Assembly: GCA_964385265.1 (NCBI GenBank) | Contig: CAYLOI010000007.1 | Coordinates: forward strand, 9,508 to 73,507 | Direction: 5' to 3' | Length of the DNA stretch: 64,000 nt | DNA from: an uncultured Thiopseudomonas sp. | GTDB lineage: Bacteria > Pseudomonadota > Gammaproteobacteria > Pseudomonadales > Pseudomonadaceae | Part shown: in pieces, positions 2,683-12,683 of the stretch | How positions within the stretch are numbered: position 1 is the first letter of the stretch | How the letters are laid out: every line of letters starts with the position of its first letter | The notes under the pieces: generated by a model | Database searches by the model: none | Seen by the model: the letters and a program-made list of their open reading frames with translations, nothing else | What the model was told of the DNA's origin: nothing | Position numbers and translations under genes: made by a program

Positions 2683-3570
2683 TTAGCTTTTTTTCTGAGC
2701 AAACAAAGCGTCTAGACTTTGTTCAAAAGCGTGATAGTTGATGCGGTCATACAGCTCCATACGGGTTTGCATGGTATCGATCACATTTTTTTGCGTACCA
2801 TCACGGCGTACCGCGTTATACACATTTTCTGCGGCCTTGTTCATGGCGCGAAACGCCGACAGCGGATACAGAACCAAGCCCACATTGGCAGCTCTTAATT
2901 CATCTACAGTGAACAAAGGTGTGGCGCCAAACTCAGTAATATTGGCCAAAATTGGCGCATTAACACGCTCAGCAAATAACTTGTACATGTCTAGCTCGGT
3001 AATGGCTTCCGGGAACACCATATCGGCACCGGCTTCAACGCAAGCAGCAGCACGGTCTAGGGCAGAGTTCAAACCCTCAACGGCCAGCGCATCAGTACGC
3101 GCCATAATCACAAAGCTATCATCGGTACGTGCATCAACTGCAGCTTTAATACGATCGACCATTTCTTGCTGGGTGACGATTTCTTTATTGGGGCGGTGAC
3201 CACAACGCTTAGCACCAACTTGGTCTTCAATATGAATCGCGGCAGCGCCGGCTTTACTCATTGAGCGCACAGTACGTGCAACGTTAAAGGCTGACGCACC
3301 AAAGCCAGTATCCACGTCAACCAACAATGGCAGCTCGCACACATCAGTAATGCGGCGTACGTCAACTAACACGTCTTCAAGGCCAGTGATACCCAAATCT
3401 GGGATACCCAGTGAGCCGGCAGCCACACCACCACCTGACAGGTAAATAGCTTTAAAGCCAGCACGTTGCGCTAATAAAGCATGGTTGGCATTGATCGCAC
3501 CGATAACCTGTAGCGGGCTTTCTTCGACAACAGCATCACGAAAGCGTTGACCTGGAGTTGTACGGCTCAT
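2683..3570 (-). CDS. prpB: methylisocitrate lyase
   Basis: 295-aa ICL/PEP-mutase family protein (..KRCGH.. motif) sitting between the regulator and prpC. Confidence 0.9.
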
Positions 3571-4280
3571 AATTTACCTCGTAGGGATTGGACGGTGTCA
3601 TTGGCACCTTGGTAATGGCGCTCGACATTACGCCGCGAAGCAGCAATGTGTCGGCGCATCAGTAACTCGGCTAATTCACCATCGCCAGCGGCAATGGCAT
3701 CTAATATGCCGTGATGTTCTTTAAAAGCTTGTTGCGGACGATTGGGCGTGGTCGAGTACTGAATACGGTACATACGCACCAACTGATACAGCTCTTGAGT
3801 CAGCAGTTTGACCAGCATTTGGTTACCGCTGCCTTGAATAATTTTATAGTGGAAGTCGTAATCACCTTCTTGCAGGTAATAACCAACCCCTGCTTGGAAA
3901 GCTGCATCACGCTCATGGGTATCCAGCACCGCGCGCAGCTCATCAATCTCTGCCGCACTCATCCGTGCAGCAGCTAAGCGACAAGCCATGCTTTCCAGTG
4001 ACTCTCGAATCTCATACAGCTCAATCAGCTCAGCATGGGACAAGGACACCACGCGCGCACCGATATGTGGAATACGCACTAGCAAGCGCTGGCCTTCTAA
4101 GCGATGAATCGCCTCGCGCAAAGGTCCGCGACTGATGCCATAGGTACGCGCCAACTCGGGCTCAGAGATCTTGCTGCCTGGGGCAATATCACCACAGACA
4201 ATCGCCGCTTGGATACTGCGAAACACCTGTTCTGACAGGGTTGCCGTATCACCGCTGGCGCGTGCTACCTCTTCAATCAT
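3567..4280 (-). CDS. GntR-family (FCD-type) transcriptional regulator of the prp operon
   Basis: Has a GntR winged-helix N-terminus ([29 protein letters not shown]) and an FCD-like C-terminus. There is a 4-nt ATGA overlap with the prpB start. The track ORF extends to a GTG at 4343. I prefer the ATG at 4280 (237 aa) because both TGTCGACA palindromes then lie upstream. Confidence 0.8.
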
Positions 4281-4290
4281 CTCTGGCACA

Positions 4291-4300
4291 GTGTCGACAC
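4291..4300. promoter_or_regulatory. perfect palindrome GTGTCGACAC, candidate GntR-type operator
   Basis: Read directly from the sequence. It matches the GT-N-AC core typical of GntR-family operators and shares the TGTCGACA core with the site at 4364-4375. Confidence 0.4.
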
Positions 4301-4363
4301 CTTTAGTAAATCGATGCCTGAAAGCTACATTCGAGCCCCGCACATGTCAACAAAGCAAAGCGC

Positions 4364-6718: not shown

Positions 6719-7702
6719 ATGCTTGGGTTTGGTTTAATTAAAACGTGGCGCGAGCTCAGCGCCAAAGGCATCATGGGCATCAATCGGCGTAATGCGGATT
6801 ACGTGCTTAAATACAATAAACGCAGTTTGTACCCTGTGGTGGATGACAAAATCCTCACTAAAGAACGCGCCATTGCTGCCGGTATTAACGTGCCGGAAAT
6901 GTACGGTATTATTTCTACCGAAAAAGAAATCGAAAAGCTCGAGCAAATCATCGGTGGGCGCACAGACTTTGTGATTAAGCCAGCAATGGGCGCGGGTGGT
7001 GACGGTATTCTTGTTATCGCTGATCGCTTTGAGGATCGCTATAAAACAGTTTCTGGCAAAATTATCAGCCACGAGGAAATCGAATATCAGATTTCCAGTA
7101 TTTTAACCGGACTCTATTCCCTCGGTGGCTCACGCGACCGCGCACTGATTGAATACCGCGTCACTCCTGATCCTTTATTTAAAAGCATCAGCTATGAAGG
7201 CGTACCGGATATCCGTGTGATCGTGTTGATGGGCTATCCCATTATGGCGATGCTACGTTTACCCACGCGCCAATCCGGTGGTAAGGCTAACCTGCACCAA
7301 GGTGCGATTGGCGTGGGTGTTGACTTAGCCACCGGCCTTACCCTGCAAGGCACCTGGCTAAACAATAAGATTAATAAACACCCCGACACCAGCAATCATG
7401 TGGCCGGCGTACAGCTACCAGACTGGCATGGCTTTATGACACTTTCGGCCGGTTGTTATGAGCTGTGCGGCTTGGGTTACATTGGCGTGGACATGGTTCT
7501 CGATCAAGAAAAAGGACCACTAATTTTAGAGCTTAATGCCCGACCTGGTTTGAACATTCAGATTGCTAACAACGCCGGACTGACCTTACGTGCGCATGCC
7601 GTAGAAAACCATATTGCCGAATTAAAACGCCAAGGCCGTACTGAGTCAGTTGAAGAGCGTGTCCACTTTTCGCAGAGCTTATTTGCCAGCACCCCGTCTT
7701 AA
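6719..7702 (+). CDS. alpha-L-glutamate ligase-like (RimK-related) ATP-grasp protein
   Basis: 327-aa ATP-grasp-type sequence (FVIKPAMGAGGDGILV, LELNARPGLNIQ), as in the RimK-related ligase family of Vibrio and Pseudomonas. Confidence 0.75.
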   Translation: MLGFGLIKTWRELSAKGIMGINRRNADYVLKYNKRSLYPVVDDKILTKERAIAAGINVPEMYGIISTEKEIEKLEQIIGGRTDFVIKPAMGAGGDGILVIADRFEDRYKTVSGKIISHEEIEYQISSILTGLYSLGGSRDRALIEYRVTPDPLFKSISYEGVPDIRVIVLMGYPIMAMLRLPTRQSGGKANLHQGAIGVGVDLATGLTLQGTWLNNKINKHPDTSNHVAGVQLPDWHGFMTLSAGCYELCGLGYIGVDMVLDQEKGPLILELNARPGLNIQIANNAGLTLRAHAVENHIAELKRQGRTESVEERVHFSQSLFASTPS

Positions 7703-7754: not shown

Positions 7755-9128
7755 TTGTCTATGCTTACTTGTCAGTTGTTTGCGCTTGATTATCACCCTG
7801 ATCCGTCCTATCACTTTACAAAAGTGCAGGCGCACAGCGGTGCTGTTTTGCTCGATTCAGGCCAGCCCAGCAGTCAGCGGGGCCGTTTTGATATTCTCAG
7901 TGCGTGGCCTCTGAGCAGCATTACACCTGAGCCTAATGAACCTGTAGATGGTTTTCGCCAGCGCTGCCAAACACTGCTCAAACAATTGGCAGTCTGCCAA
8001 GCCCCAGAGACAAGCGAACTGCCGTTTACCGGCGGCTTATTGGGGTATTTAACCTATGAGTTCAACAGCCTAGCGCAGTGCACCGAAGTGGAAGGCTTGC
8101 CCAGCGCAACAGTGGGTCTGTATGACTGGGCCTTGATCAATGACCATCAACTGCAACGCTGCTGGCTGGTCTGCCATCCGAGCATGGACGAACCGCGGCA
8201 ACAAGAGTTGGTACTGCTGTTTACTACAGCGCCTGCTTACGATTCTGTTGCCAGCAACAGACAAGCCTTTCAATTAACCCAGCCCTTTCAAGCACAGATT
8301 AGCGCTGAGCGTTATCACATCGATTTGCAACGCATTCACGACTACATTGGTGCAGGCGACTGCTATCAGGTCAATTACACACAGCGCTTTAGTAGTCTCT
8401 ATCAGGGCGATGCTTGGCGCGCTTATCTCAGTTTACGTGAGCGCTGCCCAACCCCCTTTGCCAGCTTTATCCGAGTTAATCAGCGGCAAGCCATTGTCAG
8501 TTTATCGCCTGAGCGTTTTATTCAAGTACGCCAGCGTCAGGTCGAAAGCCGTCCGATTAAAGGCACCCGCGCCCGCGGAGCGACAGCGGCAGAAGATCAA
8601 GCGCTAGCCGATGCCTTGCTCAGCAGCGCAAAAGACCGTGCCGAAAACCTAATGATTGTCGATTTACTGCGCAATGATTTAGGTCGCTACTGCAGCACCG
8701 GCAGTATCCGTGTGCCTGAGTTGTTTAGCTTAGAAAGTTACCCCAACGTGCACCATATGGTCAGCAGTGTCACTGGCACTTTGGCTGATCAATATGACGC
8801 CCTTGATCTGCTGCTGGGCAGTTTCCCCGGTGGCTCCATTACCGGCGCACCAAAATTGCGTGCCATGCAAATCATCCAAGAGCTTGAAGCCAGCGTGCGC
8901 AGCATTTACTGCGGCAGTATTTTCTACGTGGATACGCGCGGCACAATGGACAGTTCCATTACCATCCGCACCTTGCTGGCCAATAATGGCGAGATCAGTT
9001 GCTGGGGCGGCGGTGCAATAGTCTATGACTCCAATAGTGCTGAGGAATATCAAGAGTCGATTCAAAAAGTCAAAGTGCTGATGGACACCCTAGAAAGCAT
9101 ATATTTGCCTGATTCGCCGGTGCGCTAG
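7755..9128 (+). CDS. pabB: aminodeoxychorismate synthase component I
   Basis: Chorismate-binding family motifs SPERF, PIKGT and GGSITGAPK. The track start is a TTG at 7755; an alternative ATG is at 7761. Confidence 0.85.
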   Translation: MSMLTCQLFALDYHPDPSYHFTKVQAHSGAVLLDSGQPSSQRGRFDILSAWPLSSITPEPNEPVDGFRQRCQTLLKQLAVCQAPETSELPFTGGLLGYLTYEFNSLAQCTEVEGLPSATVGLYDWALINDHQLQRCWLVCHPSMDEPRQQELVLLFTTAPAYDSVASNRQAFQLTQPFQAQISAERYHIDLQRIHDYIGAGDCYQVNYTQRFSSLYQGDAWRAYLSLRERCPTPFASFIRVNQRQAIVSLSPERFIQVRQRQVESRPIKGTRARGATAAEDQALADALLSSAKDRAENLMIVDLLRNDLGRYCSTGSIRVPELFSLESYPNVHHMVSSVTGTLADQYDALDLLLGSFPGGSITGAPKLRAMQIIQELEASVRSIYCGSIFYVDTRGTMDSSITIRTLLANNGEISCWGGGAIVYDSNSAEEYQESIQKVKVLMDTLESIYLPDSPVR

Positions 9129-10024
9129 AACTGGGTATTGATGATATAGGCCGCACCCAGCGCACAAGCGATACAGAGACAGGCACCAAGTAGCGCTTGC
9201 CAGTACAAGCGTTTAGCGATGTCGTCCTCTCCGTAACTGGACAAAATAAACGGCTGACTCTCTTCAGGCTTACGCAAATAGTGCTGAACAGGAGCAGCGC
9301 TACGCATGCGATGTAAACGCTGCGCTTCAACCTTTGCACTGTCGCGCACACTTTGCCATTCCTGCTGATCAAGCTGGCCATTGCGGTCACGATCAAAACG
9401 ACGCAGCAAACCCGTATAATCTTGTTTCCACTCGCGAATCAGCGCGCCTTGGCTGGCACTTAAATCAAAGGTGTCACGGCCACCACCTCGGCTGAAAAAA
9501 TCACCAATCGCATACAGTGGCTCATGCACATGCAAGCGCTGTTCGCTATAACGGTAACGCTTCACACCGCTGAGCATGCTTTGCAAAAAGTTCTTGTGCA
9601 GCTGTTCCTTACGTGGATGGCGGGCACTGCCGTACCAAACACGTTTGGTCATGGGGATGACGTGCGCACCGACAGGGTCAATTAAGCAATCGCCGCTGCC
9701 ATCGCTCAAACAGAGTAAGGCTGCACTACTGGATTTCTCTACTTGCTGCCAACGCTTGTTATCTTTACCGCTGCGGATTTGCTCATCAATACTGAATGAC
9801 CACCAAACACAAGGCTCACCGCTCAACGGCGCACTGAGCTGCCCTGCTCCTTCTTGCAGCACGCCGTATAACTCAACGTAGCCTTGTGCCGCTGAGCGTA
9901 TCTTGGAGGTTGGTGTATCCAGTAGGTAGCGTGCTTTTTTTAAGTTATTAATGCACCACCAACCACTGGCGAAACTGCCAACAGTGGCTATACCGAGCGT
10001 GATACTAAGGCCAACAATATCCAC
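9125..10024 (-). CDS. GIDE-family (E3 ubiquitin-ligase-like) membrane protein with an EF-hand-like loop
   Basis: N- and C-terminal TM helices and a DRDRNGQLDQQE calcium-loop-like motif. Paired with lemA, which is the usual context for this family. Confidence 0.6.
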   Translation of the reverse strand: MDIVGLSITLGIATVGSFASGWWCINNLKKARYLLDTPTSKIRSAAQGYVELYGVLQEGAGQLSAPLSGEPCVWWSFSIDEQIRSGKDNKRWQQVEKSSSAALLCLSDGSGDCLIDPVGAHVIPMTKRVWYGSARHPRKEQLHKNFLQSMLSGVKRYRYSEQRLHVHEPLYAIGDFFSRGGGRDTFDLSASQGALIREWKQDYTGLLRRFDRDRNGQLDQQEWQSVRDSAKVEAQRLHRMRSAAPVQHYLRKPEESQPFILSSYGEDDIAKRLYWQALLGACLCIACALGAAYIINTQF

Positions 10025-10030
10025 AGAGGC

Positions 10031-10603
10031 TTAACCAAACAAACTTTTAATGTCGACATCGGCTTTTTCAGCATCACTAAAGCGCAATAATTCAGCCGCA
10101 ACAAAGTTAAAGTAACGTGCGATTAACACATCGGGAAATTGTTCGATGCGTACATTATTCAAATTCACCGCTTCGTTGTAGAGTTCACGGCGATCAGCAA
10201 TGCCATTTTCTAAACCGCTGATGCGTTGCTGTAAAAACTGGAAGCTTTCGTTAGCTTTTAACTCTGGGTAATTTTCTGCTAGAGCAAAGAGCTTGCCTAA
10301 GCCTAAACGCAAACCGGTTTCAGCGGTGCCTAACGCGCCGATATCATGCTGCTCGCGGGCATTGGATACGGCGTTACGCGCACTGATAACCTCTTCTAAA
10401 GTTTGGCGTTCGTGCTGCATGTATTGTTTACAGGTTTCGACCAGCTTTGGCAGTTCGTCATGGCGCTGTTTCAGCAGGACGTCAATATTGGACCATGCTT
10501 TAGTCACGTTATGTTTTAAGCGCACCAAGGCGTTGTATAAACTCACGCCCCAAGCCAGCACTAAAATAGCGGCAATCAATAATCCCACTAAAAACAAACT
10601 CAT
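10031..10603 (-). CDS. lemA: LemA family membrane protein
   Basis: 190 aa with an N-terminal TM helix and LemA-like sequence (YNALVRLKHNV..AWSNIDVLLKQRHDELPKLVE). Confidence 0.85.
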   Translation of the reverse strand: MSLFLVGLLIAAILVLAWGVSLYNALVRLKHNVTKAWSNIDVLLKQRHDELPKLVETCKQYMQHERQTLEEVISARNAVSNAREQHDIGALGTAETGLRLGLGKLFALAENYPELKANESFQFLQQRISGLENGIADRRELYNEAVNLNNVRIEQFPDVLIARYFNFVAAELLRFSDAEKADVDIKSLFG

Positions 10604-10806
10604 CGGTCGCTCCCATACAGGTTATTTATAAACAGCAGTTTAATCGCTAGTACAGGCAGTTGCTATTGTTTATCGGTTGTAGGGTATTAAGTTGAGCCTT
10701 AGCACTGAGTGAGCAACACAGCTTATGTGTAGAGTTTTATCTGATACGCAAGTGTTCGATGCGCACTGTAGTTAAATACTTATTTATTGAACATGCGGAG
10801 TATGCC

Positions 10807-10906
10807 GTACTTCGGAATTGGTGTTTGTCCGTCGGTGAACCCATTCTGGGTTCAACTCCGGCGCTGCGCCATCCCTGGCTCGCTCATCACACCAACCCCG
10901 AAGTAC
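10807..10906 (-). ncRNA. candidate structured RNA element, copy B1 (unclassified repeat family)
   Basis: Read on the minus strand it has an 18-bp closing helix, guacuucggGGuuggugu / acaccaaUUccgaaguac. Hairpin 1 is gCCAgGGAUGGc and hairpin 2 is gaaccca-GAA-uggguuc. The conserved block cgcagcgccggaguu is present. No credible ORF. Confidence 0.4.
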
Positions 10907-11076
10907 TCGTTAATCAACGGCGTTGTTAGCACGATTGATATAGAGTCCATCTTTTTCTGAGGGTTTTATATCTATGTTTTGTGTTTGAGGTTCGGACTCA
11001 GAACTCTAGAGTTTGGCTTTGGCTTTATAGCTTTATGTTTTTAGAAGACAGGCAAACCCTGCCGATGGTCAATGAG

Positions 11077-11173
11077 TACCGTGCGGGTGACGTGGCAAGC
11101 GCGCCATGGATGGCGCAGCGCCCGAATCCACGCCAGGATGGCGTGTTGAGGGAAGAACGGCACTTGCACGGTA
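11077..11173 (+). ncRNA. candidate structured RNA element, copy A1
   Basis: The closing helix is uaccgugcGGgug / cacUUgcacggua. Hairpin 1 is gcgcca-UGGA-uggcgc and hairpin 2 is cacgcca-GGA-uggcgug. The single-stranded blocks are GUGGCAAGCG, AGCGCCCGAAUC and UUGAGGGAAGAAC. Confidence 0.4.
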
Positions 11174-11242
11174 CGGCATACTTCGATAATCCTGATGCTT
11201 TTGATTCTTATCTTACAGGTGATCTGATTAGCGGTGCATGCC

Positions 11243-11341
11243 GTACTCCGGAATTGGTGTTGGTCCGTCGATGAACCCATCCTGGGTTCAACTCCGGCGC
11301 TCGCCATCCCTGGCTCGCTCATCACACCAACCCCGAAGCAC
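11243..11341 (-). ncRNA. candidate structured RNA element, copy B2
   Basis: About 90% identical to B1. The outer helix gugcuucgg / ccggaguac keeps pairing through G-U and U-G only on the minus-strand RNA. The hairpin 2 loop is GGA. Confidence 0.4.
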
Positions 11342-11527
11342 TCGTTGATCAGCGGAGTTGTTATCACGTCTTGCATAAGCTCAAGGCAAATAAAGCCCTA
11401 GTTTGTCTGCACAAACTCATGTTTTTTAACGTGTTCTTTAGTCAGCATCTAGCACGCATAACCAGTCATCAGTTGCGCCTGCAAAAAGAGACTTACACAT
11501 ATCTAGCAAAACATACACATGATCAAC

Positions 11528-11629
11528 GCGTGCTGCGCTGGGTCTGTGGCAAGCGAAGCAGGATGCGTAGCGCCCGAATCGAGCCCCGGATGGGCTCGTT
11601 GAGGGAAGAACAGACTTAGCGCAGTGCGC
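11528..11629 (+). ncRNA. candidate structured RNA element, copy A2
   Basis: The closing helix is gcgugcugcgcuGGgucu / agacUUagcgcagugcgc, with U-G and G-U pairs. Hairpin 2 is gagccc-CGGAU-gggcuc. It carries the same single-stranded blocks as A1. Confidence 0.4.
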
Positions 11630-11747
11630 AACACGCACAATGTTAACCAGCCAGCCATCTACAACGCTTGCGATCAAGCAACACAAAAAACACCAACCCC
11701 GCAAAAAGAGACTTACACATATCTAGCAAAACATACACATGATTAAC

Positions 11748-11849
11748 GCGCACTGCGCTGGGTCTGTGGCAAGCGAAGCAGGATGCGCAGCGCCCGAATC
11801 GAGCCCCGGATGGGCTCGTTGAGGGAAGAACAGACTTAGCGCAGTGCGC
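11748..11849 (+). ncRNA. candidate structured RNA element, copy A3
   Basis: Tandem duplicate of A2 at a 220-bp offset, with a perfect 18-bp closing helix gcgcacugcgcuGGgucu / agacUUagcgcagugcgc. Confidence 0.4.
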
Positions 11850-11927
11850 AACACGCCACACTAAGCCAAGCAAGACCAAGCCTGATAGAATAGAGTGCAT
11901 ATTATTATGTGTTTATAGGAGTCCACC

Positions 11928-12683
11928 TTGAACAACAGCACCTTCCCGCAGGCCGAAACCGTCGAGCAACTTCGTCAGAATTTAGCCGCCGTACGCCAGC
12001 GCATTGATCAGGCCTGCGTGCAGGCCGGACGCGATCCTAAAGACGTCCGCCTCCTACCGGTCAGCAAAACCCACCCCGCTGAGTTTTTGCGTCTGGCTTA
12101 CGCTGCAGGGTGCCGTATGCTGGGTGAAAACAAAATCCAAGAAGCTTACCAAAAATGGCAAGAGCTCGAAGATCTAACAGACCTCCAGTGGAGCATCATC
12201 GGCCATCTACAAACCAACAAAGCCAAGTACGTTGCGCGCTTTGCTACTGAGTTTCACGCGCTGCACAGCTTGCGTTTAGCCCAAGTCCTCGATCAGCGTT
12301 TAACACTCGAAGACCGCTATTTAGACGTGTTGGTGCAAGTGAATACCTCAGGCGAAGAAAGCAAATACGGGATTGCCCCAGACGATGCGCCTGAACTAAT
12401 CAAGCAACTCGGACAATTCAGCCGTTTACGCGTGCGTGGCCTAATGACCTTGGCGATGAATTCAGAAGACAGCGAAGCGGTGCGTGGTTGTTTCATTCAA
12501 TTGCGTGAATTGCGTGACAGCTTACAAGCCATCGCCCCCGAAGGTATGCAATTGAAGGAATTGTCCATGGGCATGTCAGGCGACTTTGAGCTGGCAATTG
12601 CTGAAGGCGCAACCATTGTGCGTATCGGCCAAGCCATCTTCGGTGCCCGCTCACAACCGGACAGTTATTACTGGCCGCAGTGA
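11928..12683 (+). CDS. yggS: YggS-family pyridoxal-phosphate-binding protein
   Basis: 251-aa alanine-racemase N-terminal-like fold (LLPVSKTHP.. with a PLP lysine). TTG start preceded by AGGAG. Confidence 0.85.
   Translation: MNNSTFPQAETVEQLRQNLAAVRQRIDQACVQAGRDPKDVRLLPVSKTHPAEFLRLAYAAGCRMLGENKIQEAYQKWQELEDLTDLQWSIIGHLQTNKAKYVARFATEFHALHSLRLAQVLDQRLTLEDRYLDVLVQVNTSGEESKYGIAPDDAPELIKQLGQFSRLRVRGLMTLAMNSEDSEAVRGCFIQLRELRDSLQAIAPEGMQLKELSMGMSGDFELAIAEGATIVRIGQAIFGARSQPDSYYWPQ

Follow-up and report, generated by a model that had tools for sequence, protein, structure and literature searches.

A clade-restricted family of branched, strand-specific intergenic elements with GGA loops in the Denitrificimonas/Thiopseudomonas branch of Pseudomonadaceae

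The gap between lemA and yggS in a 64 kb stretch of DNA from an uncultured Thiopseudomonas sp. (contig CAYLOI010000007.1; the whole stretch analysed is called the window) contains five homologous structured elements, which are members of an undescribed, chromosomal and clade-restricted family of the Denitrificimonas/Thiopseudomonas branch of Pseudomonadaceae. Each unit is about 105-120 nt long, and one particular strand of it folds as a three-way junction. The units are arranged as divergent modules of two types, A and B, which have expanded into alternating arrays through tandem duplication, and vertical descent has kept the clusters at the same intergenic sites, chiefly those between convergent genes. 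The five copies had been recognized in an initial annotation made from the letters of the window, and a covariance model built from them scores each of the five, at the place where it had been put, with 122-136 bits. Over the 64 kb window, the model detected no copies beyond those in the lemA-yggS gap, and a degenerate core pattern gave 5 matches in the window against 0.47 expected by chance.

Fold, types and extent of the family

The three-way junction was recognized from covariation. The initial annotation had pointed out that the stems of the second hairpin differ in sequence between the five copies and are nevertheless complementary, which is correct, and the covariation that it had proposed persists when more homologues are aligned: among 148 distinct copies, 97% of the pair cells hold standard pairs, 26 of the 35 pairs have changed on both sides, and up to six pair types occur at a single position. 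None of 500 shuffled controls reached the observed values for pairing, sliding the partners by 1-3 columns reduced pairing to 32-43%, and RNAalifold recovered the same fold independently. An outer helix, formed by the conserved leader with the tail, received no covariation support. Wobble pairs identify the strand that folds, with 324 G.U/U.G pairs against 20 A.C/C.A pairs and the same bias in both types; this leaves no ambiguity as to which strand folds, and in every pair the two members fold on different strands. The strand-specific structural selection that had been proposed from the five copies is upheld by this count, and the substitutions that separate A2 from A3 and B1 from B2 do give G.U pairs on the sense strand only.

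The closing helix (P1) has 18-20 bp and joins both ends of the unit. Arm 1 has the layout AGC / G.A-A.G / GCCA-[NGGA]-UGGC / GCG, where AGC/GCG is a 2-bp base helix, and arm 2 the layout CCS / G.A-A.G / R-Y, U.U, a 5-7 bp covarying stem and an [N]GGA[U] loop. The base helix of arm 2, CCS/SGG, covaries (CCG/CGG versus CCC/GGG), and mutual information revealed an extra R-Y pair (G-C, A-U or C-G; 99% paired) that is bracketed by G.A/A.G and extends this arm. Both arms are near-duplicates in design, each built up from a base helix through a tandem G.A motif and a stem to an NGGA loop; in the unit as a whole, helix sequences vary and covary, and loops and junctions are conserved. The leader TGATCAAYG, the closing helix and the CCA-nGGA-UGG hairpin described in the initial annotation are all present in the sequence. 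Its "single-stranded blocks" need revision, because parts of them are paired, namely the arm-1 base AGC/GCG, the arm-2 base CCS/SGG and the R-Y pair with its G.A neighbours. A third GGA lies paired within the arm-2 base helix, and the number of exposed GGA motifs per unit is two.

Type B units have the arm-2 base CCG/CGG and the closing helix GUACUUCGGGGUNGGUGU and are 92-96% identical across genomes. Type A units have the arm-2 base CCC/GGG and fall into several closing-helix subfamilies. Neighbouring copies are always opposite in type and orientation: all 66 divergent pairs and all 35 convergent pairs join an A with a B. The smallest clusters are made of one divergent A/B pair, with a spacer of 100-160 nt separating the two 5' ends. 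Larger clusters consist of repeated divergent pairs with about 40 nt between 3' ends, comprise up to 7 units and have a period of about 410 nt; paralogues within one genome are 93-97% identical. Every unit also has a type-specific conserved 5' block of about 40-45 nt, GCAAACA...TGNTCAAYGAG, directly before P1, and no conserved hairpin was found within this block.

The central, non-conserved part of many divergent spacers carries microsatellite-like repeats of 5-8 nt, for example CTGCTTCT seven times, GGGCTCT five times, CAACAG six times and GAGCCGTA three times (loci L021 239-395, L095 6159-6356, L082 4828-4962, L007 1443-1579 and L013 5608-5666), which suggests replication slippage in unconstrained DNA.

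The lemA-yggS gap of the window and its two flanking genes are organized as follows.

10031..10603, minus strand: lemA, left flanking gene (Pfam PF04011, E 5.5e-45), divergent from yggS
10795..10916, minus strand: element B1, type B; covariance model 135.8 bits; fold -55.1 kcal/mol, z -5.8; inverted repeat I6
10917..11065, no strand: divergent spacer from the B1 5' end to the A1 5' end, from upstream profiles and orthologue comparison
11066..11186, plus strand: element A1, type A; covariance model 124 bits; fold -56.1 kcal/mol
11187..11230, no strand: convergent spacer from the A1 3' end to the B2 3' end, of a class that is about 40 nt long family-wide and poorly conserved
11231..11351, minus strand: element B2, type B; covariance model 128.6 bits; GGA in both apical loops
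11352..11519, no strand: divergent spacer from the B2 5' end to the A2 5' end, holding TGCAAAAAGAGACTTACA
11520..11639, plus strand: element A2, type A; covariance model 122 bits; fold -59.7 kcal/mol
11740..11859, plus strand: element A3; covariance model 123.7 bits; repeat family D1
11928..12683, plus strand: yggS, right flanking gene (Pfam PF01168)

The sense strands of the five copies fold with -55 to -63 kcal/mol (z -3.8 to -5.8), and the opposite strands are less stable by 5 to 17.5 kcal/mol, as in B2 with -56.1 kcal/mol on the sense strand against -38.6 on the other. P1 pairs 10807-10824 with 10889-10906 in B1, where the arm-2 loop has the variant GAA in place of GGA, and 11076-11093 with 11157-11174 in A1, where the arm-1 hairpin spans 11101-11116 (GGA at 11108-11110) and the arm-2 hairpin 11129-11145 (GGA at 11136-11138). 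A1 and B2 converge with the 69-nt gap and the common tail GUACGGCAU(A/G)C that had been noted before. A2 belongs to a subfamily with P1 = GCGYRCUGCGCUGGGUCUGU, and A3 is a 220-bp tandem duplicate of the A2 unit that includes the upstream block (11478-11636 versus 11698-11856, 97% identical). The 3' end of A3 lies 69 nt before the yggS start codon, and A3 has the same orientation as yggS.

For the family at large, we scanned one genome per species with a two-gap pattern, and all counts are lower bounds. At least 100 loci were listed, all of them in Denitrificimonas caeni, in metagenome-assembled genomes (MAGs) of Thiopseudomonas, or in MAGs of unnamed Pseudomonadaceae or "Pseudomonas sp.", and in 100 listed loci the covariance model counted 264 copies and nhmmer 272, including the window. 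Individual genomes contain at least 26, 32, 36, 42 and 42 copies, at 9-14 or more loci each. The initial annotation implied a local cluster of five small RNA (sRNA) genes. That picture has to be given up in view of these numbers and of the arrays, which resemble bacterial interspersed mosaic elements (BIMEs) and lie mostly at gene 3' ends. The same annotation had named dozens to hundreds of scattered intergenic copies without discrete transcripts as the mark of a DNA repeat of the repetitive extragenic palindrome (REP) or BIME kind, and as regards copy number, dozens of dispersed intergenic copies per genome are what was found. The window is about 96% identical to MAG EC02-04. YggS homologues have 77% identity within the Denitrificimonas/Thiopseudomonas clade and then about 71% in unrelated genera, a step which indicates that the clade is discrete. 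A comparison of the element with plasmids, phage genomes and IMG/VR viral contigs gave no match. Among the metagenome contigs with an identical YggS, five of the six returned begin at window position 11827, inside the A2/A3 repeat, and the sixth, L001, begins at 11759, indicating that the element family fragments metagenome assemblies of the clade.

Genomic context and conservation in place

The flanking genes, visible on both sides for 75 clusters, are convergent for 42 (56%), co-directional for 28 and divergent for 5 (7%); the window belongs to the rare divergent class. Clusters abut gene 3' ends in 75% of cases, often with 20-60 nt from stop codon to element. The outward 3' ends of the elements face a gene 3' end in 82 of 104 instances, and single copies are tail-to-tail with a gene in 10 of 10. 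The copy nearest a gene 3' end is antisense to that gene in 82 cases and sense in 30, and in co-directional contexts the elements are oriented at random, with 32 sense and 39 antisense. Intact single copies that are antisense to both neighbours are kept between species. This conservation, together with an orientation unrelated to the flanking genes, argues against a function that depends on read-through from neighbours.

At almost all cluster sites, other species carry a cluster too, in the orthologous position between flanks of 75-91% identity, and the number of units there ranges from 1 to 6. Clusters upstream of yggS, like that of the window, occur also in D. caeni, one Thiopseudomonas MAG and two other MAGs. 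When the yggS-upstream cluster of D. caeni is compared with that of a MAG, the elements are 84-92% identical and the divergent spacer 88%, against 80% for the yggS coding sequence, 44% for the convergent spacer and 50% for the 3' flank, and the hairpin stems of the orthologues differ through compensatory changes. The higher conservation of the elements and their 5' spacer than of the adjoining coding sequence is evidence for what is probably selection in place. The dsrE-yggS gap of Denitrificimonas sp. JX-1 (L108/L109 4629-4747) contains a decayed type A relic with 14 bits, 38% GC and both GGA motifs changed to AGA, which shows the look of an unselected copy; as far as this locus goes, the family seems to be disappearing, or to have gone already, in the JX-1 lineage.

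Further observations concern the surroundings of these clusters. By eye, the rest of the JX-1 dsrE-yggS gap is like a TonB-dependent-receptor pseudogene fragment, and L108 ends in an IS605 OrfB/TnpB gene (9997-10759). On the left of the window's cluster stand lemA and a gene with a GIDE domain (9125-10603); in a Thiopseudomonas MAG and in JX-1 (L107/L108 ~3500-4350) their place is taken by dsrE/dsrF/dsrH/dsrC-like genes, indicating that the left boundary of the locus was rearranged and the cluster stayed attached to yggS. A single empty site was seen, in L041 (~7472-7483) and L074 (~7430-7440), where the convergent genes lie 8-10 nt apart and the gene ends have diverged; the same site is filled with 2-5 units in L083 (span 1459-2065), L022 and L075. 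L083 holds a fragment of a further B unit at ~1530-1560 of this site, and the 8-10 nt in L041 and L074 leave no room for a terminator.

A possible RsmA/CsrA decoy and its rivals

CsrA/RsmE dimers bridge two sites, and the distance between the two exposed GGA motifs of the element is a constant 29 nt, a spacing that, on a rigid junction, would suit one RsmA/CsrA dimer. GGA stands in the arm-1 loop of 149-150 of 150 copies and in the arm-2 loop of 138-149 of 150, and the stems beneath covary. Arm 1, GCCA-N-GGA-UGGC, contains an exact CANGGAYG; 146-150 of 150 copies agree at each base of its C-A-N-G-G-A-U-G, and the corresponding sequence of arm 2 is C-C-N-GGA-U-G. Researchers have found that the site of RsmA and RsmF is CANGGAYG with the GGA in a hairpin loop, and that the decoys RsmV, RsmW, RsmY and RsmZ carry several such sites (bioRxiv 10.1101/315341). 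The rsmA gene is a core gene in Thiopseudomonas alkaliphila (PMC11302033), and multi-copy sets of 7-8 Rsm sRNA genes have precedent in Pseudomonadaceae, namely rsmX1-5 with rsmY and rsmZ in Pseudomonas syringae and rsmZ1-7 with rsmY in Azotobacter vinelandii (PMC6715622, PMC4824345).

The element is thus like the Rsm/Csr decoy sRNAs (RsmX, RsmY, RsmZ, RsmV, RsmW and CsrB/CsrC) in size (~110-130 nt), in CANGGAYG hairpin loops and in a spacing suited to a dimer. It differs from them in having only two exposed GGA motifs per unit and ends enclosed by a long helix, in the lack of a conserved GacA box or rho-independent terminator, and in its tens of copies arranged as inverted pairs. It also differs in having no match to their covariance models: permissive filters gave Rfam matches at chance level only, the best being PrrB_RsmZ, in A1 only, which scored 12.2 bits (E 6.2) where 44 are needed for the gathering score. 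No Rfam family matched at the gathering score, either in the window or among about 65 copies at 18 other loci, in line with the initial annotation, which had recognized no known family. The dismissal of RsmX/Y/Z in the initial annotation thus stands for membership of those families and fails for the loops, as both apical loops carry the RsmA/CsrA consensus.

We tentatively propose that the elements are an RNA-level module that acts as an RsmA/CsrA decoy, a reading which we regard as possible and somewhat short of probable on the sequence evidence. The folded strand would be RNA, and each unit would be made as a small, very stable RNA, whose termini, locked in the closing helix, may be protected from 5'-end-dependent RNase E and from 3' exonucleases. 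The two CANGGAUG loops would bind RsmA/CsrA, with one dimer clamped per RNA, and the many copies would jointly titrate the Rsm system as a pool of decoys. As for the conserved 5' block, it might be a non-canonical promoter, a regulatory region or a 5' leader.

Several points weigh against such a decoy. The units are known here as DNA and not as transcripts, and each has only two exposed GGA motifs, the third being paired. No sigma-70 promoter was found in the window gap, and a search of 202 copies for a sigma-70-like promoter at a fixed distance upstream showed no positional enrichment (type A 8/100, type B 0/102). A -10-like nATGnT, from which transcription would start (+1) with the closing helix's first base, was rejected, because A stands at -11 in only 48-70% of copies. 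The GacA box palindrome is not in the upstream blocks of the family consensus; TGCAAAAAGAGACTTACA, a 10/12 match to a GacA-box-like sequence (TGTAAGN6CTTACA), stands before A2 and A3 only. No intrinsic terminator follows P1 in the window, and family-wide the 3' flanks have no conserved GC hairpin with U-tract. RsmA binding alone leaves the tandem G.A motifs, the junction bases and the leader TCAAYGAG unaccounted for, and the dozens of copies, the alternating inverted variants and the convergent 3' regions are the classic signature of REP, BIME and REPIN sequences. Moreover, G.T wobble is tolerated in single-stranded DNA (ssDNA) hairpins too, so the strand bias is no proof of RNA.

Other promoter candidates were rejected as well. 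By eye, the consensus sequences of sigma-54, sigma-E/AlgU, FliA, RpoH and PvdS misfit in spacing or key bases, and AACTT-N17-TCAA fits type A only and would put the start inside the helix. One type A subfamily (L007 ~1100-1168, L046, L080 and L083) has a recurrent (C/T)AGAAT(G/C)AT(G/T)G 7-9 nt before the conserved TTTAAAAGAG. It could be a -10 box, with a start about 50 nt upstream of the closing helix, and is not common to the other type A subfamilies or to type B.

In a wider form of the decoy proposal, the whole clade would titrate Csr/Rsm, or some other regulator that binds RNA, through 30-40 or more decoy-RNA genes distributed over the genome, arranged as divergent A/B pairs around a shared control region, spread in a BIME/REPIN-like manner and held by purifying selection at fixed loci beyond species divergence. 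We consider this version doubtful. If true, the family would be a domesticated or self-spreading regulatory RNA repeat.

The main rival explanation is REPIN/BIME-like selfish DNA, in which the divergent A/B pair would be a non-autonomous replicator copied by a trans-encoded ssDNA-specific enzyme (RAYT/Y1-HUH type or similar); we judge it unlikely. Covariation and G.T bias would then reflect selection for the recognition and copying of folded ssDNA, a protein would contact or cut the element at its GGA loops, tandem G.A motifs and leader TCAA, and the arrays would have arisen via tandem duplication. Dozens of dispersed extragenic copies, close identity of paralogues within a genome (93-97%), and the strict inverted alternation of two variants, like the Y and Z units of BIMEs, are all expected of such DNA, and so is the placement of 56% of clusters between convergent genes and 7% between divergent ones. 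The negative promoter and terminator searches, the decay of the relic in a lineage seemingly without the family, and the one presence/absence polymorphism agree with it too. Tandem unit clusters, here duplicated with their flanks, and compensatory changes have also been reported for Pseudomonas REPINs (PMC3116915).

Neither such an enzyme nor a signature of mobility was, however, seen in the fetched loci. No RAYT/Y1-like open reading frame (ORF) with HUH and Y..NP motifs occurs in the 101 fetched sources, which cover ~670 kb to 0.74 Mb around the clusters, and the ORFs between nearby clusters are housekeeping genes, with no parent element or linked partner gene seen. No target-site duplications were found: the longest flank-to-flank direct repeats equal the shuffled expectation in 21 of 23 two-unit clusters, and the two exceptions, of 13 and 23 nt, are partial unit duplications. 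The family is absent from the plasmids, phages and viral contigs searched, near-universal positional orthology at 75-91% flank identity means that transposition must be rare, and copies in place evolve more slowly than adjacent coding sequence. Variable stems with conserved loops and junctions are the reverse of REP and REPIN sequences, and the unit, a three-way junction, is about five times the size of a REP.

Among known repeat classes, the REP/BIME sequences of enterobacteria and the REPINs of Pseudomonas are like the element in that they are dispersed and extragenic, occur as two alternating inverted variants and in tandem arrays that include the flanking spacer, favour the 3' side of genes and convergent pairs, are self-complementary with compensatory changes, and persist vertically for long. 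They differ from it in being hairpins of 20-40 nt with a GTAG-type core, which the 105-120 nt three-way junction does not have; the element has copies in tens and not hundreds, its stems vary, no RAYT gene was found in its fetched loci, and its loops carry the consensus of an RNA-binding protein. ERIC/IRU, Correia (NEMIS), BOX and RUP are intergenic repeats of ~100-150 nt that are thought to fold in RNA; they are often co-transcribed with their neighbours and can affect mRNA fate. Such repeats, however, are either long imperfect palindromes of a simple kind or carry terminal inverted repeats and target duplications, whereas the element is branched, has no target-site duplication and shows strict A/B pairing.

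A cis-acting module for the neighbouring genes is a quite improbable alternative. The elements would then be 3'-end stabilisers, terminators or insulators, or outward promoters with a structured 5' leader; a leader would give antisense RNA into flanking 3' ends and, in the window, would be the 5' untranslated region of lemA (B1) and yggS (A3). The close association with gene 3' ends described above (75% of clusters abutting them, often within 20-60 nt of the stop codon, 82 of 104 outward 3' ends, 10 of 10 singles) suits such a role, and a local function would predict the retention of the cluster at every locus across species. An inverted pair would also supply one sense copy whichever side transcription enters, and yggS has A3 69 nt ahead of it, pointing the same way. 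The copy nearest a gene 3' end is, however, mostly antisense (82 versus 30), and the random orientation in co-directional contexts (32 versus 39) speaks against read-through function. On neither strand does a U-tract follow the helix, a terminator belonging to the flanking gene itself separates stop codon and element in some cases, and a purely local role leaves the invariant CANGGAYG loops unexplained.

Least probable of the four, in our view, is a structured RNA with a partner other than RsmA/CsrA, such as a ribonucleoprotein scaffold or a Y-RNA-like particle, in which the GGA loops would be tertiary or protein contacts. More is conserved than RsmA needs, namely the tandem G.A motifs of the two arms, invariant purines at the junction, and the leader and tail; also, the closed long helix and branched head of the element share the layout of Y RNAs, which consists of a closed-end long helix and a branched head. 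However, no candidate partner gene is linked to the clusters, the exact CANGGAYG and the 29-nt spacing fit Csr/Rsm, and dozens of copies would be unusual for a scaffold RNA.

Other classes were rejected. The absence of a credible ORF in the gap, claimed earlier, is supported: the mechanical ORFs of the lemA-yggS gap have no Pfam match above threshold, and one-nucleotide indels, which are common (of 150 copies, 45 have a gap in column 55 and 95 in column 39), break any common frame. Substitutions are pairwise compensatory and not three-periodic. A small-ORF or type I toxin-antitoxin repeat of the Sib/Ibs or Ldr type was dismissed on the same broken frames and lack of Pfam matches. A tRNA, ribozyme or riboswitch was considered from the conserved blocks, such as the hammerhead-like GUGAUGAG of type B, and dismissed because type A does not conserve this block and the units are oriented at random relative to their neighbours. 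A miniature inverted-repeat transposable element does not fit either, given that there are no target-site duplications and no parent insertion sequence was seen in the fetched loci. Integron attC sites are likewise strand-specific folded elements of ~60-140 nt in arrays, with variable stems and conserved structure, but they are all co-oriented, have gene cassettes between them and carry a complementary R''/R' core pair. The orientation of the elements alternates, their spacers of 40-160 nt hold no ORFs, and their tail, GUACGGCAUGC, has no GTTRRRY core.

Significance and a second repeat

Whatever the mechanism, the family provides a clean new structured motif that is absent from Rfam, with pseudo-symmetric arms and several hundred natural variants rich in covariation, and it explains the breaks in metagenome assemblies of the clade at element loci. 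If it is true that the units are RNAs and bind RsmA/CsrA, this would be the first global post-transcriptional regulator buffered by a dispersed repeat family and not by a few sRNA genes, and genome repeats of the REP/REPIN type would be joined to Csr/Rsm regulation, two hitherto separate fields. The family is present in a cultivable type strain, D. caeni DSM 24390, and is therefore open to direct tests.

A second repeat, the GC-rich palindrome GCGGGCGNNCCGCCCGC(GCTCC), lies beside or between the units in four fetched genomes (L099 6168-6184, 6459-6475 and 6750-6766; L050 326-342; L062 5049-5065; L064 2316-2332; L033 6003-6019) and is absent from the window. It resembles a classical short REP or a terminator-type hairpin.

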